DNA from: Verrucomicrobiia bacterium
GTDB lineage: Bacteria > Verrucomicrobiota > Verrucomicrobiia > Palsa-1439
Direction of reading: 5' to 3'
Assembly (NCBI GenBank): GCA_050008795.1
Contig: JBEKLX010000002.1
Span: 1 to 62,665 of the forward strand
DNA: 62,665 bases
The position numbers were made by a program, and so were the translations under genes. Shown here one piece after another: positions 8,659 to 48,538 of the stretch; the first letter of the stretch is position 1; the number at the start of each line of letters is the position of its first letter. The notes beneath the pieces were generated by a model. The model worked only from the letters and a program-made list of their open reading frames with translations. It was not told the origin of the DNA and made no database searches.

Positions 8659-9231
8659 TCAGAGTCCGCTCTTGCGAATTTGCCGCTTCACGACTAGCGG
8701 CGTCTTCGACTTTGCGATCAAACCCGTGGTCGAAAAACCGCGCACGAACGGTACGATGCGAATCCGTGCGCCCAGTCCTGTGAGCACCGCGCGCTCGCCT
8801 GCGTCAAGCGTCTTTGCAGTGTAATCTCCGGCCTTGACGTAAATGTCAGGGCGCACGGCGGCGAGAAAACGGTCTGCGCGAGGTTCATTGAAGATCACCA
8901 CCGCGTCCACGCACCCCAGTGCCGCGAGAACGGCGGCACGATGTTGTTGGCGAACCAGTGGACGCCCCGAACCTTTGAGTTGCCGGACCGAAGCGTCCGA
9001 GTTGAGGCCGACCACGAGCAGGTCGCCGAGTTTCCGGGCGCGTTGGAGATAATTCACATGGCCGTAGTGGAGAAGATCGAAACAGCCGTTCGTTGCGACG
9101 ATCCGTCGTCCATGACGATGCGCGGCTGCAGCCCATCGGGTCGCCTGCGCAAGTGTTAACACTTTGGCTGGCGGTGATTTGCGCGTGGGCGTTTTGTCTT
9201 GATTCATCGTCATGGTGCGCTGATACTTCAA
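8659..9231 (-). CDS. hldC: D-glycero-beta-D-manno-heptose-1-phosphate adenylyltransferase (RfaE/HldE domain II type cytidylyltransferase)
   Basis: TNGCFDLLHYGHVNYLQRARKLGDLLVVGLNSDASVRQLKG..RP and YVKAGDY closely follow the RfaE domain II pattern. Confidence 0.8.
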   Translation of the reverse strand: MKYQRTMTMNQDKTPTRKSPPAKVLTLAQATRWAAAAHRHGRRIVATNGCFDLLHYGHVNYLQRARKLGDLLVVGLNSDASVRQLKGSGRPLVRQQHRAAVLAALGCVDAVVIFNEPRADRFLAAVRPDIYVKAGDYTAKTLDAGERAVLTGLGARIRIVPFVRGFSTTGLIAKSKTPLVVKRQIRKSGL

Positions 9232-9324
9232 CTTCCAGCATGGCTTATAGGATTCGACGGGTCAAGGTCGTTTTGCCCATCTTTGCGGGGCTGCCAGTGT
9301 GAGGCTGGAGATCAAAAGAAGCAC

Positions 9325-10845
9325 ATGCAATATGTCCATTTAATCGGAACGATCATCTATTTTGCGTTGTTGATCACGTTGGCGTGCTACGGCCTGCATC
9401 GCTATTGGATGATCTATCTCTATTACAAACACCGCAAGGAGACACCGATGCCAGTAGGCCGGCTGGATCCACTCCCCAAGGTGACCGTTCAACTGCCGTT
9501 GTACAACGAAATGTATGTGGCTGAACGGTTGATCGATGCCGTAGCCGCATTGGATTATCCAAAAGATAAGCTCCAGGTCCAGATCCTCGACGATTCCACC
9601 GACGAAACCACAGATATCGTTGACCACAAGGCGGCGGAGCTGCGCGGTAAGGGTTTCGACGTCGTTTCCGTGAGGCGGCTCAACCGCCACGGTTTCAAAG
9701 CTGGGGCGCTGCAAGACGGGTTGCGGACGGCGACAGGCGATTTCATTGCGATTTTTGACGCCGATTTCGTGCCGCAGCCGAGCTTCCTGCTGCGGACGAT
9801 AGATTTCTTTTCCGATCCGAACGTCGGTATGGTGCAAACTCGCTGGGGCCACCTAAACGAATCCGATTCGCTGCTCACGCGCCTGCAATCCATGTTTCTA
9901 GACGGCCATTTCCTGATCGAGCAAAGCGCGCGCTCGCGGTCGGGGCGGTTCTTCAACTTCAACGGTACCGCCGGTATTTGGCGACGGAGTTGCATCGAGG
10001 AATCCGGTGGCTGGCAGCACGACACATTGGCTGAAGACTTGGACCTGAGCTACCGCGCGCAGATCAAGGGTTGGAGATTCTGGTTTCTACCCGACGTCGT
10101 CACGCCCGCAGAGTTGCCGGTTGAGATGAACGCCTTCAAAACGCAGCAACATCGCTGGGCAAAAGGCTCGATCCAGACCTGCAAGAAGATGCTTCCAGTC
10201 CTTTGGCGCAGCCATCTGCCCTGGAAGATCAAACTCGAAGGCACGGTGCATCTGACGAGCAACTTCGGACACTTGATGCTGCTAATGCTGTGCCTCCTAC
10301 TCCATTCCTCAGCCGCCACCAGCACCAATCAGGTCACGGGAGGCAATCCGTGGATGAGGCTGATGTTGGTTGACTTGCCGCTGTTTTTTGCGGCCTCGGT
10401 CTCGATCTCGGCATTTTACTTCTGCGCGCAGAAAGAACTCCACGCCCAGTGGTGGAAGCGACTCCTTTACGTCCCACTGCTCATATCGGTCGGGATCGGT
10501 TTGTCGGTGAACAACGCCCGGGCAGTGCTCGAAGCGATCTTCAACTACCGCAGTGATTTTGTGCGCACGCCGAAATACGGCGCGTTCTCTCGCGTCAATT
10601 TGGGATTCAAACGGGAGTATCTCGCGCTGCGCGGCCTTGTGCCATACGTCGAGTTCACGTTCGGTGTGTACTTCAGCTACCTGCTGTTTCAGGCGGTGCA
10701 TCGCAGTCAGTGGTCGATGATACCGTTCTTCCTGATCTTCCAAGTCGGTTTCCTCTACGTCGGCTTGATGTCGCTGGCACAGAGCAGTGTCCGTCTACTC
10801 TTCCGACAGGCACAGCAGGCGGGACTGTCTGTTGCAGGCGCCTAA
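9325..10845 (+). CDS. family-2 glycosyltransferase, processive cellulose-synthase-like type
   Basis: N-terminal TM, D/DxD motifs (QILDDSTD, FDADF), QTRWGHLN, and a Q..RW motif (QQHRWAKGS), followed by C-terminal TM helices. ATG at 9325 chosen over the upstream ORF-track start. Confidence 0.8.
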   Translation: MQYVHLIGTIIYFALLITLACYGLHRYWMIYLYYKHRKETPMPVGRLDPLPKVTVQLPLYNEMYVAERLIDAVAALDYPKDKLQVQILDDSTDETTDIVDHKAAELRGKGFDVVSVRRLNRHGFKAGALQDGLRTATGDFIAIFDADFVPQPSFLLRTIDFFSDPNVGMVQTRWGHLNESDSLLTRLQSMFLDGHFLIEQSARSRSGRFFNFNGTAGIWRRSCIEESGGWQHDTLAEDLDLSYRAQIKGWRFWFLPDVVTPAELPVEMNAFKTQQHRWAKGSIQTCKKMLPVLWRSHLPWKIKLEGTVHLTSNFGHLMLLMLCLLLHSSAATSTNQVTGGNPWMRLMLVDLPLFFAASVSISAFYFCAQKELHAQWWKRLLYVPLLISVGIGLSVNNARAVLEAIFNYRSDFVRTPKYGAFSRVNLGFKREYLALRGLVPYVEFTFGVYFSYLLFQAVHRSQWSMIPFFLIFQVGFLYVGLMSLAQSSVRLLFRQAQQAGLSVAGA

Positions 10846-39246: not shown

Positions 39247-39275
39247 TTGACGGATGTTGTTCCCCACCATAGTCT
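39247..39275 (+). promoter_or_regulatory. sigma70-type promoter candidate for tRNA-fMet
   Basis: TTGACG, a 17-nt spacer, then TAGTCT, ending 5 nt before the mature tRNA 5' end. Confidence 0.55.
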
Positions 39276-39280
39276 CGCTT

Positions 39281-39357
<77 letters not shown>

Positions 39358-39615: not shown

Positions 39616-40179
39616 TCAATCGCCAACTGGGATGATGATTCGCACACCTACATATGGCTTGCTGTCTTGCCACATGTTGAGATCGAGCTTCACGCGCGGG
39701 TTGTCCTGTGATCCTCCGAGAGGATTTTCCATTGTGCGACACAGGTGGCCTTGATCAAAGGTGAAGTCAGCGTGGTCCACGATACTTTTAAGGAAGTGAT
39801 CTACGGCAAACGTGGCTGTGTCTAGACCGTATTTGGCGATCTCGATCTCGCGATTAACGGGCGACGGACTCTCTTGCGCTGGTCGGAATTCCGATTCGAA
39901 TTTTTCCCACGCCTTAGTGTCTGTCGGCTTGTGGTGTGTCATTAGAATCCGCTGGCGGTCGCGCTCTGGGAGCGTATTACGGTCAATCTGTTCGTTGATG
40001 TTATTCCGGATGGACTCCATCGGAACCGTGGAAACTGACAGGAAGGCTACCAAGGATGGGGACTCGGTTTTTTGCGCAGCAGCAGACTGAACGATTGACC
40101 AGCAGGAAACACATGTGACCATCCCCGATATAATCGAGCGCCAGTGGCTGAAGATGCCATGTTTGCCATGGCGGCTCAC
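39616..40179 (-). CDS. hypothetical secreted protein
   Basis: N-terminal hydrophobic signal-like segment. No recognised domain. Confidence 0.5.
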   Translation of the reverse strand: MSRHGKHGIFSHWRSIISGMVTCVSCWSIVQSAAAQKTESPSLVAFLSVSTVPMESIRNNINEQIDRNTLPERDRQRILMTHHKPTDTKAWEKFESEFRPAQESPSPVNREIEIAKYGLDTATFAVDHFLKSIVDHADFTFDQGHLCRTMENPLGGSQDNPRVKLDLNMWQDSKPYVGVRIIIPVGD

Positions 40180-40207: not shown

Positions 40208-40606
40208 CTAGAACCGAGTCTTCATCGTATCGTAAATCAGTTGTGCTCCCGCTCGGTTGGCCGATGTATCAAACGTTCCCACCGTGATCCTGATTTGAGT
40301 CACTTTCTCGGTTTTGCGCAGCAGGTCGATGTTCACAGGTTGCTCCTGTGCGTTGCGCGCCTCCAAATGGGCAGACAACGCGTCATTCTTCGAGGACGTC
40401 ACGGGTATCTGTAGTTCTTTCAACGCCGCGTTGGCTGCATCCCATGCTTTGTCCAGGGACACTTCGTGGGTCACTTGCAATGTATTGCCAGCGTACTCCA
40501 CAGCGCCGTAAGTAGCCCCTCCCACAAGCAGCAAGGCACACCCTTGAACCAAAGCCATTGTGGCCAAGACACACACCATTAAAATCGCTGCTTTGAATGC
40601 TTTCAT
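40208..40606 (-). CDS. DUF3568-like lipoprotein
   Basis: MKAFKAAILMVCVLATMALVQGC lipobox. The later motif TQIRITVGTFD is typical of this small lipoprotein family. SD aaaggag precedes the start. Confidence 0.65.
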   Translation of the reverse strand: MKAFKAAILMVCVLATMALVQGCALLLVGGATYGAVEYAGNTLQVTHEVSLDKAWDAANAALKELQIPVTSSKNDALSAHLEARNAQEQPVNIDLLRKTEKVTQIRITVGTFDTSANRAGAQLIYDTMKTRF

Positions 40607-40685
40607 GCCTGTTCTCCTTTCACATTGTTGCTTACATTGAAAGGTTTTCACGGAGGAACATAAGCCGGGAAACCGAACGAGCGCA

Positions 40686-40703
40686 ATGGGGTATTGACCC
40701 CAT
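40686..40703. promoter_or_regulatory. palindrome site 1 (ATGGGGTATTGACCCCAT) in a divergent intergenic region
   Basis: 7-bp arms. TAGGTT lies 23 nt to the right (40727-40732) and TATGTT lies 23 nt to the left on the minus strand (40657-40662). Confidence 0.6.
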
Positions 40704-40762
40704 AGAAAATGCGCTGGCTCTTGGCGTAGGTTACCGGTAGCGATAAAGAAAGGAACAACAGT

Positions 40763-40915
40763 ATGGGTTTAATCCTATTAATATTGGTAATTCTCTTCCT
40801 CGTGGGCGCATTGCCTACCTGGCCCCACAGCAGAAACTGGGGATACTATCCGAGCGGCGGGCTCGGACTTGTCCTCCTTATCCTGCTTATATTAGTTCTG
40901 ATGGGCCGGATTTGA
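40763..40915 (+). CDS. DUF3309-family small membrane protein (50 aa)
   Basis: Not in the ORF track. Translation is MGLILLILVILFLVGALPTWPHSRNWGYYPSGGLGLVLLILLILVLMGRI. SD aaggaa upstream. Confidence 0.8.
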   Translation: MGLILLILVILFLVGALPTWPHSRNWGYYPSGGLGLVLLILLILVLMGRI

Positions 40916-40973
40916 AGGACGAACGCGACGAGGAACGTCAGCGTATACAATACCGCAGGCGTACTGGGCATTC

Positions 40974-41534
40974 ATGAAGAGAGCGACTTGGATCTGTGGC
41001 ATACTGATCGTGTGTGCGCTGGCAGTGTCACGCTGTTCGACGGTGCAGAAAATTCTCCCGACCACTGCCTGGCGTCAGGCCCGCGTGCGTAACGAAGGCT
41101 ACAGCCTCCTCTACCAACTGCTGAGTCAGGAAAGTGACGCAGCCAAAATCCTCATTATTAAACACGCTGACCCTCCGATCGCCGACATCATCAAAGAGAT
41201 CGCGAGCACCTGTGACCAAGCCAGGAAGGAACTGGAGCAGTTTCATGAAAAGTATCGTGACCTCAGCTTGGAGATGACACACCTGCCGCAGATCGAACAG
41301 CAGACGCGCGCCGCGATAGAATCGACCGTGACCAAACAGTTGCTATTCTCCAGCGGCAAGAAGTTTGAAGTTCGCTTCCTCTTTACCCAAGCCGAGGCCA
41401 TGAACTACGCCGCACATCTGGCGCAGGTATTGCACGATCAGGAAGACAACCCGGTTCGCAAAGAGTTTCTGGCCACGCTCTCGGAACGCTGTACCACGCT
41501 CCGTGACCGCGTGATGGAGCTGCTGAAGTACTGA
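40974..41534 (+). CDS. hypothetical exported protein
   Basis: Signal-like N-terminus MKRATWICGILIVCALAVSRC, then a helical, charged body. No recognised domain. Confidence 0.55.
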   Translation: MKRATWICGILIVCALAVSRCSTVQKILPTTAWRQARVRNEGYSLLYQLLSQESDAAKILIIKHADPPIADIIKEIASTCDQARKELEQFHEKYRDLSLEMTHLPQIEQQTRAAIESTVTKQLLFSSGKKFEVRFLFTQAEAMNYAAHLAQVLHDQEDNPVRKEFLATLSERCTTLRDRVMELLKY

Positions 41535-41549
41535 TCGCGGCTGTCGGTT

Positions 41550-42101
41550 TTAGAAATGCCAGTTGACGATAATCATGCCGGGGGCCAACTCGCCGGGCAA
41601 CCCGGTAAACCATCGGTTCTCGGGCATAATGTTCACCAGCCCGATTTGTACTCCGCTGTCCGCCGCCGCCGCATAGTTGAGCAATCCGAGCTGCAATCCT
41701 GTCAGTCTGCCCGCGGAGTTCACCACGCCGGTCTGCAGACCCTTCATTGAGCCTTTCGTGTAGTTCACGAATCCGCTCTGCCATCCCAGGAAATCCATTT
41801 CATTGTAATTGATCAGCGCCCATTGTACTCCCTTGTAGCTGTCGGAGTAGTTGAGGATGAATGCCCAACTCAGGCCGGCACTTTGACCCGTGGATCCGTT
41901 GACAATCCCCAGGGCCAGCGCTTTCTGCGGGTTCTCGCTCCATATACCGATGGTCAACCCATCGATTTCCTCGGTCCGATCGAAGATGGCGATATCCGGA
42001 GTAAGGCTGAGTTGTATCGGTTTGCTTCCGGCCATCACTCCAGTCGCGACCAGAGCAACGCCCATGAATACCAGTATCCTCTTCATATAATTGTTTTTCA
42101 T
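41550..42101 (-). CDS. secreted repeat protein with G-[LV]-Q-x-G-x-x-N repeats (LA_2272-like surface repeat family)
   Basis: Repeats GLTIGIWS, ALGIVNGS, GVQWALINY, GWQSGFVNY, GLQTGVVNS, GLQLGLLNY, GVQIGLVNI. An alternative start lies at 42086. Confidence 0.6.
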   Translation of the reverse strand: MKNNYMKRILVFMGVALVATGVMAGSKPIQLSLTPDIAIFDRTEEIDGLTIGIWSENPQKALALGIVNGSTGQSAGLSWAFILNYSDSYKGVQWALINYNEMDFLGWQSGFVNYTKGSMKGLQTGVVNSAGRLTGLQLGLLNYAAAADSGVQIGLVNIMPENRWFTGLPGELAPGMIIVNWHF

Positions 42102-42136
42102 GGCATAAGCATATGCCGGGAAGTGGTGCGGATGCT

Positions 42137-42154
42137 ATGGGGTGTTCACCCCAT
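42137..42154. promoter_or_regulatory. palindrome site 2 (ATGGGGTGTTCACCCCAT; reads ATGGGGTGAACACCCCAT on the minus strand)
   Basis: TATGCT (minus strand, 42108-42113) lies 23 nt from the palindrome, just upstream of the 42101 start. Confidence 0.6.
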
Positions 42155-42205
42155 TGGAGATTTCCTGAATCCAGCCCCGACGCGGCATGTCGGTCTGGCC
42201 GTAGA

Positions 42206-42889
42206 CTAAACAATCGTTAACTGGACACTGCTTTCGATGACGCCAGCAGAAATGGCGTAACGGGTGAGACCGGCCACGTCGTGAATATTCAGCTTCTGCA
42301 TGAGACTCTGCCGGTGTTTCTCGACGGTTTTGATGCTGATGCCCAATTCCGCCGCGACTTGTTTGTTTGGCGCGCCTTCGGCAATCAGTTGGAGCACTTC
42401 AATCTCGCGCGAACTCAGGTGGGCGACCTTCTTCTTGAGCAGTCCTTCTCGATCAAGCGACTTCTGATTGCGATTGTTGAGGCGCTTGGCAATGGAGGGG
42501 CTGAAAAATGTGTTTCCTTTGTGGGCTTCCCTAATCGCCCGTGCCAGAACCTGGAGGGAGGTTTGTTTGATTAGGTATCCCGCTGCGCCCAGCGCGGTCG
42601 CCTGCTCAACATAAGCATCATCACTGTGTGCGGAAAGAATGACCACCTTGGTGGCGGGGACAACTTTGAGAATCTGCCGGGTGGCTTCCAAACCATTGAG
42701 CAATGGCATCGCGATATCCATCACGACCACGGTGGGACGAAGTTTCCTGGTCAGTTGCACCGCTTGGCGGCCGGTCTGCGCTTCGCCGACCACCTCAATA
42801 TCGCTTTCGTGCTCCAGTAACGACCGCAGCCCCTCGCGCACGATCATGTGATCTTCAGCCAATAGAACGGTGATGTGCTTCATGGACAC
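42206..42889 (-). CDS. NarL/FixJ-family response regulator (REC + LuxR-type HTH)
   Basis: VLLAEDH, VVVMDIAMP (phospho-Asp context), LSSREIEVLQLIAEG..NKQVAAELGISIKTVEKHR. Confidence 0.95.
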   Translation of the reverse strand: MSMKHITVLLAEDHMIVREGLRSLLEHESDIEVVGEAQTGRQAVQLTRKLRPTVVVMDIAMPLLNGLEATRQILKVVPATKVVILSAHSDDAYVEQATALGAAGYLIKQTSLQVLARAIREAHKGNTFFSPSIAKRLNNRNQKSLDREGLLKKKVAHLSSREIEVLQLIAEGAPNKQVAAELGISIKTVEKHRQSLMQKLNIHDVAGLTRYAISAGVIESSVQLTIV

Positions 42890-42925
42890 GGAAGATTCTG
42901 TCCAAAACAGAATCCATGAGCAAGT

Positions 42926-44065
42926 CTAAACCTTGGCGCCGTTGCCGAACGGAATCTGCGCCCGGATGGTAGTGCCTTTGCCTGGCGAGGATTCGACGGC
43001 AAAGCTGCCGCCGACCATCTCCACCCGCTCGCGCATGCCGAGCACTCCCAATCGCTTGTAGCGTTTGGCGAACAAGACGCGTTCCACCTGAAAGCCCTTG
43101 CCGTCGTCTTTGATTTCCATGCGAATCGCGCCGGGGAGTTTCCGGATGCTCACGTTCACCCGGCTGGCTTGCGCATGCTGGGCGGTATTGGTGAGCGCTG
43201 CCTGGGCGACGCGATAGAGCACCGTTCGCTTGGCGTTGTCCAATTGTTCAACCCTGGCAGCAGTAAAGGTCGTGAAGTGAATGTGGATCCCCGTCCGTTT
43301 CGTAAACTCTTTCATAAAAGAATGGAGGGCGGGAATCAGCCCAAGGTCATCCAACACCGTCGGGCGCAATTCACGGGCAAACCGATGCACGATGTCCACC
43401 GACTTTTCCACCAGCCGTTGCGTGCGTGCGATCTTTTTCGTGAGGCCCTTGGCGTTGACCGTGGCCTCATTGTTCAATGTCGCCAGATGGACGTTGATGC
43501 CCGTCAAGGTCTGGGCGATTTCATCATGCAACTCGCGGCTGATCTGCTTACGCTCTTCCTCCTGCGCTGATAGAAGCTTGTGGGCTAGACGCCGCAATTG
43601 TTCCTGTTGGTGGCGCGACTGCTCCAACAAGCCGCTGTAGTGTTGTTCGCTGTTCCGGAGGGATTCTTCCATAGCCTTGCGCCGGACGATTTCCCGTTGC
43701 AGCCGCCGGTTCGCGGCGGCCAGTTCCACGGTACGCTGGCGCAGCGTCTGGTTCACTTGACTCAAGTGGACGTTGGCCTTTCGCATGGCGTGGTGAGTTT
43801 CCTCGATTGGAGTGATTGCCTCAACAAAAAAAACTTCCGCACGCTTGATCATCCCGTCTCTGGTTCCGGCTGAGTAACTTGGCGACACCAGTGTCACCAG
43901 TGCTTGCTTGTGCATCCTGGCGATGTCCAACGTCTCCAGCCCAATAGCCATGGCCCGATGTCCCAGTCGATCTGCAGGTTGCAAGCCAGCCCGTGGCCCT
44001 TGGTTTAGGTGGTTCCGCAACGCCGCCACGTATTGTCCCGACAACTTGGTTAATTTTAGTTTCAT
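42926..44065 (-). CDS. cytoplasmic sensor histidine kinase (HisKA_3 + HATPase_c) with a soluble N-terminal sensory domain and coiled coil
   Basis: H-box ISRELHDEIAQTL. N/G boxes: ALTNTAQHA, DDGKGF, GVLGMRERV. No TM segment. Start set to the ATG at 44065, preceded by ggaga. Confidence 0.9.
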   Translation of the reverse strand: MKLKLTKLSGQYVAALRNHLNQGPRAGLQPADRLGHRAMAIGLETLDIARMHKQALVTLVSPSYSAGTRDGMIKRAEVFFVEAITPIEETHHAMRKANVHLSQVNQTLRQRTVELAAANRRLQREIVRRKAMEESLRNSEQHYSGLLEQSRHQQEQLRRLAHKLLSAQEEERKQISRELHDEIAQTLTGINVHLATLNNEATVNAKGLTKKIARTQRLVEKSVDIVHRFARELRPTVLDDLGLIPALHSFMKEFTKRTGIHIHFTTFTAARVEQLDNAKRTVLYRVAQAALTNTAQHAQASRVNVSIRKLPGAIRMEIKDDGKGFQVERVLFAKRYKRLGVLGMRERVEMVGGSFAVESSPGKGTTIRAQIPFGNGAKV

Positions 44066-44133
44066 AATATCTCCAGAATTCATGCGCCACTATTAACCCG
44101 CTGTCACTCTCTGACGATTGCCTCAAGCCGTCT

Positions 44134-44150
44134 ATGGGGTAAAACCCTAC
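44134..44150. promoter_or_regulatory. degenerate palindrome site 3 (minus-strand GTAGGGTTTTACCCCAT) upstream of the kinase-regulator operon
   Basis: Same variant form as site 6 (GTAGGGTTATACCCCAT). AATCG follows at similar spacing. No clean TAnnnT hexamer. Confidence 0.45.
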
Positions 44151-44220
44151 TCAGCCGACCCGCTGATTTACTCCGTGGCGATTGGATTAATTTTTCGGAG
44201 GAGGCCTCCAGTAATCCCAG

Positions 44221-44238
44221 ATGGGGTGAACACCCCAT
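44221..44238. promoter_or_regulatory. palindrome site 4 (ATGGGGTGAACACCCCAT)
   Basis: Perfect 8-2-8 inverted repeat. TAGTGT at 44261-44266, 22 nt downstream. Upstream of the DUF3494 gene. Confidence 0.65.
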
Positions 44239-44316
44239 AGCAAAGAATCAGCCCATCGCTTAGTGTTCGCTTCAAGCGGGAATTTGAAGACGCAACAACA
44301 GAAGGGGAAAAGTACA

Positions 44317-46770
44317 ATGAGAGCAATTAATCCAATGGCGTTGGTAGTGAATGGAACGAAACGGATCCTAACGGGTCTTGTTGTTGCGGGTGCAGCAATG
44401 TTCTTGTCGCATGACGCGCTTGCCATGCAAGCCGGAACCAGTATTCACTTTATATTCAATACAGCCATGACGAACACCATGGTCGATACCGATGCCCGTG
44501 GCACAATCCGCGGCAACCTAAACCGCCAAGGGAATGCGAACTACCTGAATCTCAAGATCTCGCTGGCCAAGCTGGCTCCCACCACGACGTATCAGTTGGT
44601 TGCCTACATCGGTAACGACACCAACTCAACAAGCGTGACGAATTTCACCACGACCTCAAAAGGCGCATTCTCGGTCACATATGTGAAAAGGGGCTGGAGT
44701 AGCGCGAGCCCGGGCGGGCAACCGTTACCGGATGCGCTGAGCCAGATCTGCACCGTCCGTGAGTTGGCTATCGTCAACGGCAGCACGCAGACAGTTCTGC
44801 GGGCGGACCTTACGGACCCGGACAAGCTACAGTACCACGTCAACAATTTCATGGCCAATACCGGATTCATTCCCGTCGCGGTCGGAGCGCTTCAGATCAA
44901 TGCCACCAAACAACGCACCCAGTTCCGGTTGCAGGCCTTGGGTCTGACGCCTAGCACGACCTACCTACTTGCGATCAATGGGAGCGTTGCTCAGACGAAT
45001 ACGGCGAACAGCGCGGGCAAGCTGAATCTGACGGTCCTGCCTGGTTCGACGGACGTGCTTGGTATTTACACGCTGGCACTGACAGATGGCAGCGGCAGCA
45101 ACGTCGTGCTTACCACAGGCGGACTCGGAGTCCCTTGCGACACCGTTGCGCCCACCGTAAGTTTCACTATTCCTGCGAATGCTGCCACGGGTGTGGCGCT
45201 CAACAGTCAGCTCGCTGTCATCTTCAGTGAGGCGATGAATCCTGCTACGATCACCAACACAACCTTTATCTTGAAGCAAGGGGGCGCGATGGTCACCGGC
45301 ACGGTGAGCTACGCTGGCGTCACGGCTATTTTTACGCCAACAACCGCTCTCAGGACGAATGCCATCTATACGGCCACGATTACCACCGGGGCAACGGACT
45401 TGGCCGGTAATGCACTGGCAAGCGACTTCGTATGGAGCTTTATGACGGGCGCGTCGGAAGACACCATCAGACCCACCGTCACCGCCACCAGCCCGACGAA
45501 TGGTACCACGGCTGTGGCGCTCAACAGCAAACTCACCGCCGCTTTCAGTAAGGCGATGAATCCTGTTACGATCACAAACACAACCTTTACACTGCAGCAA
45601 GGGAGCACGACGGTTACCGGCACGGTGAGCTATGTGGGCGTCACGGCGGTTTTTGCGCCCGTAAGCAATCTCACGAGCAATGTTCTATACACGGCCACGA
45701 TTACCACCGGGGCAATGGACTTGGCCAGTAATGCACTGGCAACTAACTATGTCTGGAGCTTCACGACAGGCGCGTCCACAGATACAAACCGACCCACCGT
45801 CACTGCCACTAGCCCGACGAATACTGCCACGGGTGTGGCCATCAATCAGACCATCAACGCCACCTTCAGTAAGGCGATGGATCCCTTAACAATCAGCACG
45901 GCATACTTCACGGTGACCGGGCCTGGCTCAACTGTGGTGACAGGAACAGTCCTCTATGCTGTCGCGAGCAAGACTGCGACCTTTACACCAAATAGCCTTC
46001 TTGCAACCAACACCACGTATACGAACACGATTACCACCGGGGCAACGGACCTGGCTGGCAATGCACTGGCTTCGTCAACTAACTGGAGCTTCACGACGGG
46101 CGCGTCCACAGATACAAACTTAATTACAAACCCATTGTCAATCAACCTCGGAAGGGCCTCCACCTTCGCGATTATGGCGACCGCGGCGACCAGTGGCGGC
46201 GGCGACAACATTACCGGAGACGTTGGGTTGTATCCGGGTAGTTCACAGGGAATCCCGCCGTCAGAAATCAGCGGGACGATCCATGTGGATGATCAGGCCA
46301 TAATTGATGCTCAAGCCGATTTGTTGGCCGCGTATAACGACGCCGTTAGCCGATCGGTCAACGCTCAAACGTTGGAAGGCAATCTGGGCGGGCTGACCAA
46401 GTACCCTGGCCTCTATGTGAACTCGAGCTCGACCGGAATATCTGGATCGGGAGCAAACGCGATTCTAACTCTCGATGCCCAGGGTGACCCGAATGCGGTC
46501 TTCATCTTCAAGATGGGGTCCACGCTTACCACGGGTCCTGGTACCAGTATTGTCCTGAGCGGCGGGGCACTGGCGAAAAACGTCTATTGGCAGGTCGGCA
46601 GTTCAGCGACCTTGGATACGACCACCATCTTCAAGGGAAACATACTGGCTGCTGTTACCATCACGGTGAATAACGGTGCCGCGGTGGAAGGCAGATTGTT
46701 TGCCGGCTCAGGCGGCGGAGCGGGCTCGGTGACTGTACAGTCCAGCACCATTACAGTGCCTGCACCATAA
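44317..46770 (+). CDS. large secreted protein: two N-terminal beta-sandwich-like repeats, three Ig-like (SbsA/Big_5-type) repeats, C-terminal DUF3494 ice-binding-like domain
   Basis: Signal peptide MRAINPMALVV...AMFLSHDALA. Three units of about 107 aa (PTV..T.P.N...V.....I.A.FS.AM.P.TI....F.......V.GTV.Y......F.P...L......YT.TITTGA.DLAGNAL). The C-terminus (FAIMA..ATS, ITGDVGLYPG, LTLDAQGDPNAVFIFKMGSTLTT, NVYWQVGSSATL, GNILA) fits DUF3494. Confidence 0.8.
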   Translation: MRAINPMALVVNGTKRILTGLVVAGAAMFLSHDALAMQAGTSIHFIFNTAMTNTMVDTDARGTIRGNLNRQGNANYLNLKISLAKLAPTTTYQLVAYIGNDTNSTSVTNFTTTSKGAFSVTYVKRGWSSASPGGQPLPDALSQICTVRELAIVNGSTQTVLRADLTDPDKLQYHVNNFMANTGFIPVAVGALQINATKQRTQFRLQALGLTPSTTYLLAINGSVAQTNTANSAGKLNLTVLPGSTDVLGIYTLALTDGSGSNVVLTTGGLGVPCDTVAPTVSFTIPANAATGVALNSQLAVIFSEAMNPATITNTTFILKQGGAMVTGTVSYAGVTAIFTPTTALRTNAIYTATITTGATDLAGNALASDFVWSFMTGASEDTIRPTVTATSPTNGTTAVALNSKLTAAFSKAMNPVTITNTTFTLQQGSTTVTGTVSYVGVTAVFAPVSNLTSNVLYTATITTGAMDLASNALATNYVWSFTTGASTDTNRPTVTATSPTNTATGVAINQTINATFSKAMDPLTISTAYFTVTGPGSTVVTGTVLYAVASKTATFTPNSLLATNTTYTNTITTGATDLAGNALASSTNWSFTTGASTDTNLITNPLSINLGRASTFAIMATAATSGGGDNITGDVGLYPGSSQGIPPSEISGTIHVDDQAIIDAQADLLAAYNDAVSRSVNAQTLEGNLGGLTKYPGLYVNSSSTGISGSGANAILTLDAQGDPNAVFIFKMGSTLTTGPGTSIVLSGGALAKNVYWQVGSSATLDTTTIFKGNILAAVTITVNNGAAVEGRLFAGSGGGAGSVTVQSSTITVPAP
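45139..46110 (+). repeat. three tandem coding repeats (321, 321, 330 nt) encoding the Ig-like domains
   Basis: Units start at 45139, 45460 and 45781. Long near-identical stretches such as acggccacgattaccaccggggcaa. Confidence 0.9.
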
Positions 46771-46817
46771 GACACGAGTGATTGGATCAGTTTTTAGAGG
46801 GGCACCAGTAATCCCAG

Positions 46818-46835
46818 ATGGGGTGAACACCCCAT
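46818..46835. promoter_or_regulatory. palindrome site 5 (ATGGGGTGAACACCCCAT)
   Basis: Perfect copy. TAGCCT at 46858-46863, 22 nt downstream. The ATG of the next ORF is at 46874. Confidence 0.65.
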
Positions 46836-46873
46836 AGCGAAGGGCCGGCCTATCGCATAGCCTGCATCGCCAA

Positions 46874-47995
46874 ATGGTGAACCCAAAGAAACGACACAAG
46901 GTCTTCAAGGTCATCTTGGCGGGTTTGGTGGGCGGATTATTGGCTGCAGCGTCGATCGCTACGGCGTCTAATCCTTTGGACGATGTGAAGGGCTTCAGTG
47001 ATTTTCCCGCAGCCGACCTTGGCCGCATGCTTGATGGTGACATTCTCGGTACGCGGGGTTCGCTGATGAATTTTCCCAATGGGCTCTCTGTGCAAACATG
47101 TTTCGTGACACCGGAGGCGGCAGAGGAAACGGCCAGGCAATTGCAGGATTGGGATCCATTGCCGCACGAAGCGCTGAAGGTGTTCGCGTATCAAGCGATG
47201 CGTGGGCCGTGCGAGGCATCGGATTTTCAAAGCCTGAACCTGAAGTCGAATCAGGGCGCCATCCGCTGGCTGCTGGACAAGACCCTGGCCACCACGGCCG
47301 ACAAATCGGATCTCAACCTGACACGCGCCGAGGCGCAACGACTGGCGAACTGTGCCAATAGCAATTCCGATACCCAGGATGTGAGTGCGTGCTGGGTGGA
47401 GTTGCTGCGTGAACGTGTCGCTGTGTTCCAGCGCGATGGGTTCGACGGCCTGCCGCCGTACGAAGCCAACGGTGTAACGGTGTCACCGCGGACGCAGCTT
47501 CGCGAGATGCTGCGTGAGCAACCAGCCGTGGCCAGTCAGTTTGCGACGCTGTTGCAGCAGAGCGGGCTGCTGGGCGGCCAGGGGGCAGAGTCGCTCACGC
47601 CAACGTTGTACTGGACTCTGTTCGAGGCCAACCACCGCGCCACGTTGAGCCTCGGGGCTATCTACCTGTTGCCGCAAGGTGATCACTACCAACTCTTGGA
47701 TGTGCAATATTACGTCAGCGGCAAGTACTACGCAGCTGCGACACTATGTGAGATCTGGCCGATACGCGTTGGCGATAAATCGGGCGCGCTTGTATGGCGG
47801 GGTGATTTCGTTGCGGCGCCGGCGCTGTCGTTCATCAGGGGAACCGACCGGATCGTCTACGGCGCGATCCTGCTTCAGGAGATCAAGAAGGTGGTCCGCT
47901 GCTTCCATGATGACTTAAAGGCAAAAACGCTAACCCGTCACAGCGCCTCGACCAGGATTTTCGCAAATCCAAGCATCTCATCGGTTGTCCGCTGA
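46874..47995 (+). CDS. hypothetical exported protein (373 aa)
   Basis: N-terminal TM/signal KVILAGLVGGLLAAASIATA. No recognised domain. The start coincides with the conserved ATGGTGAACC block. Confidence 0.55.
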   Translation: MVNPKKRHKVFKVILAGLVGGLLAAASIATASNPLDDVKGFSDFPAADLGRMLDGDILGTRGSLMNFPNGLSVQTCFVTPEAAEETARQLQDWDPLPHEALKVFAYQAMRGPCEASDFQSLNLKSNQGAIRWLLDKTLATTADKSDLNLTRAEAQRLANCANSNSDTQDVSACWVELLRERVAVFQRDGFDGLPPYEANGVTVSPRTQLREMLREQPAVASQFATLLQQSGLLGGQGAESLTPTLYWTLFEANHRATLSLGAIYLLPQGDHYQLLDVQYYVSGKYYAAATLCEIWPIRVGDKSGALVWRGDFVAAPALSFIRGTDRIVYGAILLQEIKKVVRCFHDDLKAKTLTRHSASTRIFANPSISSVVR

Positions 47996-48049
47996 ATTCG
48001 CCTATTTATGGCGAGATCAGCTTTTAGCGGGCACCTCCAATCACCAACG

Positions 48050-48066
48050 GTAGGGTTATACCCCAT
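48050..48066. promoter_or_regulatory. palindrome site 6, variant form (GTAGGGTTATACCCCAT)
   Basis: TAGCCT at 48089-48094, 22 nt downstream. Followed by the mini-ORF ATGGTGAACCTGAAGTAG (48100-48117) and then the lmo0937-type gene. Confidence 0.55.
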
Positions 48067-48134
48067 AGCAAATGGGCAGCCAATCGCGTAGCCTGTCTCA
48101 TGGTGAACCTGAAGTAGACCGAAAGGAAAATCAT

Positions 48135-48284
48135 ATGTTGTGGACAATTGCTATCATACTGATGGTTCTGTGGGCGCTGGGACTGGTGAGCAGTTACACG
48201 ATGGGAGGGTTTATTCACGTCCTGCTGGTGATTGCCATCATCGTGGTGTTGATCAGGATCATTCAGGGCCGACGAGTGGTGTAA
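48135..48284 (+). CDS. lmo0937-family small membrane protein (49 aa)
   Basis: MLWTIAIILMVLWALGLVSSYTMGGFIHVLLVIAIIVVLIRIIQGRRVV. SD aaaggaaaa. Start set to the internal ATG of the track ORF. Confidence 0.8.
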   Translation: MLWTIAIILMVLWALGLVSSYTMGGFIHVLLVIAIIVVLIRIIQGRRVV

Positions 48285-48322
48285 AAAACGGTTAATTAAA
48301 ACAAGAAAGCTGGAGGTTAGAG

Positions 48323-48538
48323 ATGAGTTCAAGAATGGTTGCAGTTATACTAATCGCTATCGGCATCGTGGTGCTCGCTTACTCTGGCGTCACCTTCAAG
48401 ACCCCGGGAAAATCCGTCGATTTCCTCGGAATGCACATCGAAACCACCCATAGCCACTTTATTCCCCCAGTCGCCGGTACGATCGCGCTGGTCGGCGGGA
48501 TCGTGTTGCTGCTCGTAATGAGCCCCAAAAGGGATTGA
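48323..48538 (+). CDS. hypothetical two-TM small membrane protein
   Basis: SD ggaggt upstream. Two hydrophobic helices flank a short loop. Confidence 0.6.
   Translation: MSSRMVAVILIAIGIVVLAYSGVTFKTPGKSVDFLGMHIETTHSHFIPPVAGTIALVGGIVLLLVMSPKRD

Follow-up and report, generated by a model that had tools for sequence, protein, structure and literature searches.

A two-component pair and six palindromic boxes

We analysed a 62,665-bp stretch of DNA (the window; contig JBEKLX010000002.1, assembly GCA_050008795.1) from a Verrucomicrobiia bacterium, in which a histidine kinase and a response regulator lie amid genes for small membrane and surface proteins and among six copies of a palindromic box, a candidate operator. 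The kinase (42926-44068, minus strand; HisKA_3 1.6e-13, HATPase_c 1.5e-14) is soluble, with no transmembrane segment, and its gene lies 43 bp upstream of, and in the same orientation as, that of the regulator (42206-42883, minus strand; Response_reg 5e-27, GerE 1e-19). To one side are genes for a DUF3568 lipoprotein (40208-40606, minus strand; Pfam 1.3e-17), a DUF3309 small membrane protein (40763-40915, plus strand; Pfam 3.7e-24), which shares a unit (40763-41534) with a 186-aa lipoprotein-like open reading frame (ORF; 40974-41534, plus strand), and a 183-aa LA_2272-repeat surface lipoprotein (41550-42101, minus strand; LA_2272_repeat 7e-17). To the other side are genes for an exported protein with three Big_5 domains and an Ice_binding-like domain by Pfam (44317-46770, plus strand), a 373-aa exported protein of no known family, without a Pfam or NCBIfam match (46874-47995, plus strand), and a DUF5670 (lmo0937-type) small membrane protein (48135-48284, plus strand; Pfam 3.2e-16), which shares a unit (48135-48538) with a 71-aa ORF (48323-48538, plus strand). 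Pfam bears out the gene calls of the initial annotation, which had been made from the sequence alone (DUF3568, DUF3309, receiver plus GerE, HisKA_3 plus HATPase_c, three Big_5 plus Ice_binding, DUF5670), and also its claim of a single regulator nearby, as the receiver-GerE protein is the only DNA-binding protein in the cluster.

All six boxes are intergenic, fall within 7.5 kb around the pair and sit at exactly the coordinates first assigned to them. Four are 18-mers, ATGGGGT-N4-ACCCCAT, or heptamers in a 7-4-7 arrangement. S1 (40686-40703), ATGGGGTATTGACCCCAT or ATGGGGT-ATTG-ACCCCAT, faces both ways and is common to the divergent DUF3568 (leftward) and DUF3309 (rightward) promoters. S2 (42137-42154, minus strand; ATGGGGTGAACACCCCAT-AGC) lies just 3' of the regulator stop codon and would serve the LA_2272-repeat gene, S3b (44221-44238, plus strand) precedes the Big_5/Ice_binding gene and S4 (46818-46835, plus strand) the gene for the 373-aa protein; S2, S3b and S4 all read ATGGGGTGAACACCCCAT on the strand of the downstream gene. 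The other two boxes are 17-mers, GTAGGGT-N3-ACCCCAT (7-3-7): S3a (44134-44150, minus strand; GTAGGGT-TTT-ACCCCAT-AGACGG), a candidate autoregulatory site upstream of the kinase-regulator operon, and S5 (48050-48066, plus strand; GTAGGGT-TAT-ACCCCAT-AGC), before the DUF5670 gene. S3a and S5 had been described as variants of the 18-mer; their positions hold, but they form a second spacing class, with a 3-nt spacer that is a genuine 1-bp contraction beyond mere base substitution and that replaces 7-4-7 at orthologous genes elsewhere.

The boxes do not occur at random. With up to 3 mismatches allowed, the 18-mer was found at 4 loci in the window against 0.03 expected, and the relaxed pattern [GA]GGGT-N3/4-ACCC[CT] matched exactly the six boxes and nothing else in 62,665 bp, compared with a mean of 0.2 and a maximum of 2 matches in 300 dinucleotide shuffles. 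The pattern scan found no box in the remaining 55 kb.

Promoter architecture

In six transcription directions a TAnnnT hexamer stands 22 or 23 nt past the box, as had been annotated. The distance is 23 nt for TAGGTT (40727-40732) to the right and TATGTT (40662-40657) to the left of S1 and for TATGCT (42113-42108, minus strand) at S2, and 22 nt for the plus-strand hexamers TAGTGT (44261-44266) at S3b, TAGCCT (46858-46863) at S4 and TAGCCT (48089-48094) at S5. The exception is the kinase-operon direction, where S3a has no TAnnnT at 22-23 nt.

The same geometry recurs in two sets of relatives. A kinase-selected set came from a search of genomes with the kinase, which returned 78 loci, ~50 of them Verrucomicrobiota (Pedosphaera-like, Opitutaceae and others) at 41-82% identity and the remainder from other phyla with distant HisKA_3 kinases only; a metagenome set came from a scan with ATGGGGTRWWYACCCCATRGC, which is blind to the -10 element, and comprises at least 120 stretches. 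TAnnnT is found at +22 (27 cases) or +23 (19 cases) for 46 of the 62 oriented boxes in the kinase-selected set (74%), with 0-2 cases at each other offset, and at +21 (12), +22 (45) or +23 (50) for 107 of 175 oriented boxes (61%) among the metagenome matches listed; offsets outside the peak score 0-5 across the two sets. For ORFs of at least 40 aa, taken over all sets, the start codons cluster 35-36 nt past the box, which is 6-7 nt past the hexamer, indicating that many box-dependent mRNAs are probably leaderless and providing an estimate of the transcription start that is independent of the hexamer. A start at this pile-up puts the box centre at about -44/-45, upstream of the position near -42 that had been proposed. 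In the window, the ATG of the LA_2272-repeat gene (42101) is 35 nt from S2 (42101-42154), so its transcript would be leaderless, and with an ATG at 46874 that of the 373-aa protein gene would be nearly so (46835-46874).

No -35 element follows the box in a position matrix of the 62 oriented boxes, and a sigma-70 consensus scan found no promoter before any target gene. The tRNA-Met promoter next to the cluster (39247-39281), a textbook housekeeping reference of the form TTGACG-17 nt-TAGTCT that ends 5 nt before the mature 5' end, has a clear -35, unlike the box promoters. Its TAGTCT makes TAGnnT a plausible housekeeping -10 in this organism, in keeping with the -10 box first suggested for tRNA-fMet. 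With a dimer-sized site in the place of the -35, a fixed +22/+23 distance to the -10 and no consensus -35, the box promoters have the makings of class II promoters, the geometry originally put forward; this architecture and its conservation across relatives likewise favour the view of the motif as a promoter-associated operator.

The box is not fully symmetric in its surroundings. In aligned boxes the arm that faces the downstream gene runs on directionally, as ACCCCAT(A/G)GC(G), and the promoter-proximal heptamer with this extension, ACCCCAT(A/G)GC, is the best-conserved part. Positioned like a -35 and at a set distance from a -10-like hexamer, such an element could belong to a promoter that an alternative sigma factor reads by itself, without an activator. 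Yet the box is a true palindrome whose distal arm is conserved too, and hexamers flank it on both sides in 13 of 169 perfect-arm boxes among the matches listed (S1 and 12 others), where one box would serve two directions; these bidirectional boxes fit a symmetric dimer acting at divergent promoters. The 22-23 nt from arm to hexamer also exceeds a -35/-10 spacer, the -10 resembles the housekeeping type of tRNA-Met, and no sigma or anti-sigma gene is linked to the boxes in the scanned parts of the window or in eight orthologous loci. We regard direct reading by a sigma factor as very improbable.

We give almost no credence to the idea that the box is a generic repeat, an RNA hairpin or a terminator that needs no regulatory protein. 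Its GC-rich 5-bp stem and 4-nt loop could fold, S2 follows the regulator stop codon and the motif is abundant in metagenomes, but its distance and orientation to -10 hexamers and start codons are fixed, no T-run follows it, and no terminator was called at any box. In the productive orientation the box would lie upstream of the transcription start and hence remain untranscribed, and an Rfam search of the window returned two tRNAs only, none at the boxes. Its strict orientation and strict distance to -10 hexamers and start codons also set the box apart from extragenic repeats of the repetitive extragenic palindrome or bacterial interspersed mosaic element type (REP/BIME), which are high-copy palindromes that keep no set position towards promoters and often sit at 3' ends or between convergent genes.

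Further features of these promoters were noted. The S3b, S4 and S5 promoters (44170-44270, 46770-46870 and 48000-48100) are alike over ~90 nt beyond the box itself, in the form TTTTaGaGGG..CCAgtAATCcCAg-box-AGCaAA..ATCGCnTAGyyT, and by this likeness appear to be duplicated whole promoter modules; the upstream part of the S5 module is nearly identical to the promoter of a 351-aa gene in a related locus, L001. The position matrix shows an A-rich patch (AAAT/AATC) enriched 8-12 nt upstream of the box, around -60, perhaps an UP-like element or a site of bending. Before some genes (L010:11066-11095, L042:13343-13375 and L199:8682-8715) boxes overlap or stand in tandem, so that three half-sites follow one another, an arrangement that recalls the cooperative tandem Dev boxes.

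Conservation and linkage to the pair

The boxes are conserved among relatives and linked there to the kinase and regulator genes, whose pairing is kept in 42 loci. The ~50 Verrucomicrobiota-type loci hold 90 boxes, spread over 28 of them and reaching nine per 20 kb, against 1 box in the 388 kb of loci that have distant HisKA_3 kinases only; the co-occurrence of boxes with orthologues of the pair, which the initial annotation had proposed as a check, is supported by these counts. The only DNA-binding domain that recurs near boxes is GerE. A box directly after the regulator gene, as at S2, is also present in L001, L005, L009, L014, L038, L040 and L042. The box of the kinase operon and that of a receiver-only gene are 7-4-7 or 7-3-7 depending on the genome, and from this switching at orthologous targets it follows that one factor reads both spacings.

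Unlike the other targets, which vary between genomes, the kinase operon keeps its site: a box lies 61-131 nt before its first gene in ~30 of 35 orthologous operons, from Pedosphaera-like bacteria to Opitutaceae, with the distal arm decayed in distant Opitutaceae. This box is a conserved and distinct subtype, ACCCCATA(T/G)ACA, with no TAnnnT at +22/+23. Autoregulation had been suggested from the single site in the window, and the presence of a box before the operon of the pair in most relatives agrees with it, but the geometry differs from that of the other boxes and does not reveal the sign of the effect. This different geometry, and the fact that some LuxR-type proteins repress, are what can be said for a regulator that binds the box as a repressor or anti-activator. 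Such a role seems quite improbable to us, as the boxes lie upstream of the -10 and overlap neither it nor the transcription start, promoters without a -35 should be weak unaided, and strict helical phasing is typical of activation.

Two unusual occurrences were seen in the relatives. In L037 and L038, kinase orthologues with adjacent boxes are found on contigs binned as Fibrobacteria and Eisenbacteria; either the regulator and its sites were transferred horizontally as a set, or these contigs are mis-binned. In L082, a perfect bidirectional box (1512-1535) separates a divergent kinase and regulator whose identity to the window pair is only 31-33%; this paralogous two-component system could be a target, or it could read the box as well.

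The regulator and the kinase

Among solved structures, the full-length regulator is closest to VraR (6e-40; the VraR/LiaR type), followed by NarL, DesR and DevR, and the Asp of its VVVMDIAMP sequence aligns with the VraR phospho-acceptor. Its DNA-binding domain on its own is closest to EsrB/SsrB, EL222, StyR and FixJ. A receiver with an acceptor Asp, a GerE helix-turn-helix (HTH) and an adjacent HisKA_3 kinase make it a NarL/FixJ (LuxR-C/GerE) response regulator. The earlier label of NarL-type is right as to the receiver and the GerE/LuxR-type HTH, but the DNA-binding domain is closest to the FixJ/SsrB/EL222 group and not to NarL. The recognition helix, KTVEKHR, is 90-98% invariant among 42 regulator orthologues of 59-83% identity, and this near-invariance would match that of the ACCCCAT half-site; a covariation test between helix and half-site is powerless in these 42 orthologues, in which both are nearly invariant. 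NCBIfam gave no equivalogue above cut-off, the best scores being for MctR/MctS, and both kinase and regulator have thousands of close homologues in metagenomes.

The kinase has a helical RsbU_N-like N-terminal domain, a long coiled coil, HisKA_3 and HATPase_c, and its H-box, LHDEIAQ, aligns to DesK. The RsbU_N score of the window kinase is 23.2 bits against a Pfam cut-off of 25.5 bits, which some orthologues reach; Pfam records the domain for most of 120 close kinase homologues and for 8 kinase-type target proteins. An AlphaFold model of residues 1-165 has two short helices and a 100-residue helix that runs into the dimerization and histidine phosphotransfer (DHp) domain, with a predicted local distance difference test score (pLDDT) of 82, and a fold search with this model gave no match at E<0.001, which neither confirms nor rejects RsbU_N. 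Many relatives have, immediately 5' of the kinase gene, a gene for a 232-240-aa paralogue that combines RsbU_N with HisKA_3 but has no HATPase_c (for example L014:9318-10013, L004:9274-9984 and L048:9274-9996), and its stop codon often overlaps the start codon of the kinase gene; the window does not have it. This catalytic-domain-less paralogue may modulate the kinase or act as a decoy.

In Proteobacteria, kinases with an RsbU_N domain, a coiled coil and HisKA_3 are found beside stressosome genes (PMC12143880, citing Heinz et al. 2022), and they share their domain order with the window kinase, whose RsbU_N score is borderline. No STAS or RsbT-like (rsbR/S/T) genes were found in the scanned part of the window (33.4-62.6 kb), nor did any stressosome genes turn up among the small ORFs that precede the L199 kinase or in eight orthologous loci of 20 kb, for which the tables list the 25 commonest families, so that single matches could escape. 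The linkage to rsbR, rsbS and rsbT that marks stressosome-output kinases is thus not seen in this part of the window or in the eight loci.

Target genes across genomes

Target genes were called crudely, with some spurious ORFs, and family counts are lower bounds. The 88 targets of the kinase-selected set (L001-L051 plus the window) include at least 7 BON, 6 receiver-only, 3 DUF748, 2 CsbD, 2 DUF948, 2 Ice_binding and 2 AMPK1_CBM proteins and 2 outer-membrane beta-barrels. The 150 targets among the metagenome matches listed include at least 14 receiver-only proteins, 5 PAS kinases, 4 DUF2934 proteins, 3 6-phosphogluconate dehydrogenases, 3 AMPK1_CBM proteins and 2 each of DUF3309, DUF3300, PRC-barrel, MlaA and Ice_binding proteins. 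Several targets in the window thus have counterparts elsewhere: two independent metagenome loci among these matches have a DUF3309 gene as a box target, a DUF5670 homologue is one in L030, the L001 orthologue of the gene for the 373-aa protein (8706-9758) is also preceded by a box, and Ice_binding proteins are targets in other loci too.

Small proteins of the CsbD, BON/OsmY and PRC-barrel kinds and their like typify the general-stress regulons of other phyla. In Listeria, lmo0937 (DUF5670) responds to a sigma-B inhibitor (PMC3225968). By association, the target families resemble a general-stress regulon, and the families found across genomes (BON, CsbD, PRC, DUF5670) agree, in the same associative sense, with the envelope or stress role first suggested for the cargo. 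One box-downstream gene of the kinase-selected set encodes a KaiC-like ATPase (PF06745, 3e-105), a hint that the regulon may connect to a Kai-type timing or stress system.

Proposed mechanism

We propose that the box is the operator of the adjacent two-component system, through which the GerE-type regulator activates transcription in a class II manner and feeds back on its own operon, and we put the probability of this at roughly 0.7. The cytoplasmic kinase, with its RsbU_N-like N-terminal domain, coiled coil, HisKA_3 and HATPase_c, would sense an intracellular cue, possibly a binding partner, and phosphorylate the receiver/GerE-type regulator. A dimer of the regulator would then bind the inverted heptamers, ATGGGGT-N4-ACCCCAT or (G)TAGGGT-N3-ACCCCAT. 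The box, ending 22-23 nt before TAnnnT, would replace the -35, and the bound regulator would recruit RNA polymerase as at class II promoters, switching on six transcription units in the window, those of the DUF3309, DUF5670, DUF3568, LA_2272-repeat, Ice_binding-like adhesin and 373-aa proteins. The S3a subtype of box upstream of the kinase-regulator operon would give the system feedback on itself. The binding protein, the sign of regulation and the signal are what we infer here from sequence.

Several points weigh against this proposal. The RsbU_N label is borderline, below the Pfam threshold in the window kinase and without confirmation from the fold search. The kinase-operon box lacks the canonical distance to a -10, and a rigid dimer would not usually accept half-sites whose spacing differs by 1 bp. 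Furthermore, ~95 of 120 motif-selected metagenome stretches among the matches listed have neither kinase nor regulator, though several are 10-14 kb long. Boxes are therefore by no means always linked to the pair, the regulon is dispersed in relatives, and the self-contained regulon of the initial annotation has to be given up except, at most, for the 62 kb of this window. Receiver-only proteins and PAS kinases are the commonest targets, and the kinase-regulator operon could be one more signalling target of an unlinked factor.

The main rival draws on the last of these points: an unlinked global dimeric activator, for example of the CRP/FNR type, would bind the box, and the operon of the pair would merely be a frequent member of its regulon. 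CRP/FNR-type proteins, too, act from class II positions through palindromes spaced by 4 bp, most box-bearing contigs are without the pair, the regulon is rich in signalling proteins (the receiver-only proteins, 14 of 150 targets among the matches listed and 6 of 88, and the PAS kinases), and in L082 it is a paralogous pair that flanks the box. But no DNA-binding family except GerE recurs near boxes, the kinase-operon box is the most widely conserved site while other targets vary, box density peaks beside the pair, and GerE-type regulators are known to use sites with the same G-triplet register and 7-4-7 layout (PMC3177182, PMC2837388). We consider an unlinked activator unlikely.

Comparison with known systems

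The operator of the adjacent pair, as we propose it, has close parallels. SsrB of the SsrA-SsrB system of Salmonella pathogenicity island 2 (SPI-2) binds an 18-bp 7-4-7 palindrome of flexible build, in which the spacer may change and one arm may be weak, a single strong heptamer being enough, and two copies of it precede ssrAB, its own operon (PMC2837388). The DNA-binding domain of the window regulator has EsrB (1e-12) and SsrB (2e-9) among its closest solved relatives. The SsrB site differs in being AT-rich and in keeping no strict distance to the transcription start; SsrB also counters H-NS, and SsrA is a membrane-bound hybrid kinase.

DosR/DevR of Mycobacterium tuberculosis is likewise a GerE-type regulator with soluble HisKA_3 kinases (DosS/DosT), an autoregulated system with a regulon of small stress and dormancy proteins. 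DosR reads GGGACT, with its G triplet, in each half-site (PMC3177182), and at hspX the centre of its box falls at -43.5, next to a suboptimal -35 (PMC13486717), close to the -44/-45 estimated here; in our own alignment of the consensus sequences, the G triplet of the verrucomicrobial box falls in the same register from the dyad. The two are not orthologous, as DevR scores 92.6 bits against 140 for VraR and comes sixth among solved structures. The inner half-site is GGGGT here and GGGAC there, the window kinase has no GAF-haem sensor like that of DosS/DosT, and boxes here are single, whereas DosR promoters need at least two tandem boxes, bound cooperatively; tandem or overlapping copies of the verrucomicrobial box are occasional and confined to the relatives (L010, L042, L199).

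The NarL heptamer, TACYYMT, resembles (T)ACCCCAT, and NreC of staphylococci reportedly recognises a GC-rich palindrome, TAGGG-N4-CCCTA; its partner NreB is a soluble HisKA_3 kinase. NarL differs in a 7-2-7 arrangement of heptamers with the C-run first, and the sensors differ too, NreB using PAS/Fe-S and NarX being periplasmic, as do the targets, which there belong to nitrate respiration, not seen here. As at class II promoters, such as those of CRP/FNR (-41.5) and the lux box (-42.5), the dimer site abuts or replaces the -35, is phased at a fixed distance to the -10 and can be shared by divergent genes. The verrucomicrobial box lies 2-3 bp further upstream (~-44/-45), with the start taken from leaderless start codons. 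By these analogies the box design would be typical of the GerE-type regulator family, and the mechanism unsurprising.

A possible wider role in Verrucomicrobiota

Verrucomicrobiota are abundant in soil, peat and freshwater, and transcription regulation in the phylum is almost uncharted; our literature search found no paper linking Verrucomicrobia to such a box or regulon. The box and the pair would provide a first defined operator and regulon for this understudied phylum, with a candidate regulator and kinase, a promoter design (box, 22-23 nt, TAnnnT and often a leaderless start codon) and a first list of target families (DUF3309, DUF5670, BON, CsbD, DUF948, PRC, DUF2934, receiver-only proteins and 6-phosphogluconate dehydrogenase). 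Several membrane proteins with domains of unknown function could thereby be assigned to one co-regulated stress module. The box could be used for regulon prediction in uncultured genomes, and the promoter design could serve as a template for inducible promoters in the few cultivable members.

A more far-reaching view, which we hold only tentatively and think possible rather than probable, is that the pair and its box control, as a master switch, a general-stress or dormancy regulon common to the whole phylum Verrucomicrobiota, with the kinase responding to a protein partner (for instance an RsbT-like protein, or the paralogue that has no catalytic domain) and not to a small-molecule sensor domain. 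If true, the switch would be functionally equivalent to sigma-B, EcfG, RpoS or DosR, yet built on a two-component activator.

Surroundings of the cluster

Base composition gives no island signature, though the cluster adjoins tRNA-Met. Neither Pfam nor NCBIfam has a match for two ORFs of 186-187 aa at 39616-40179 (minus strand) and 40974-41534; the former lies between tRNA-Met and the cluster and is without a box. The genes that flank the cluster are housekeeping genes, namely eno, tRNA-Met, panD, a LolA-like gene, bioB, ksgA, pdxA, surA and pckA.

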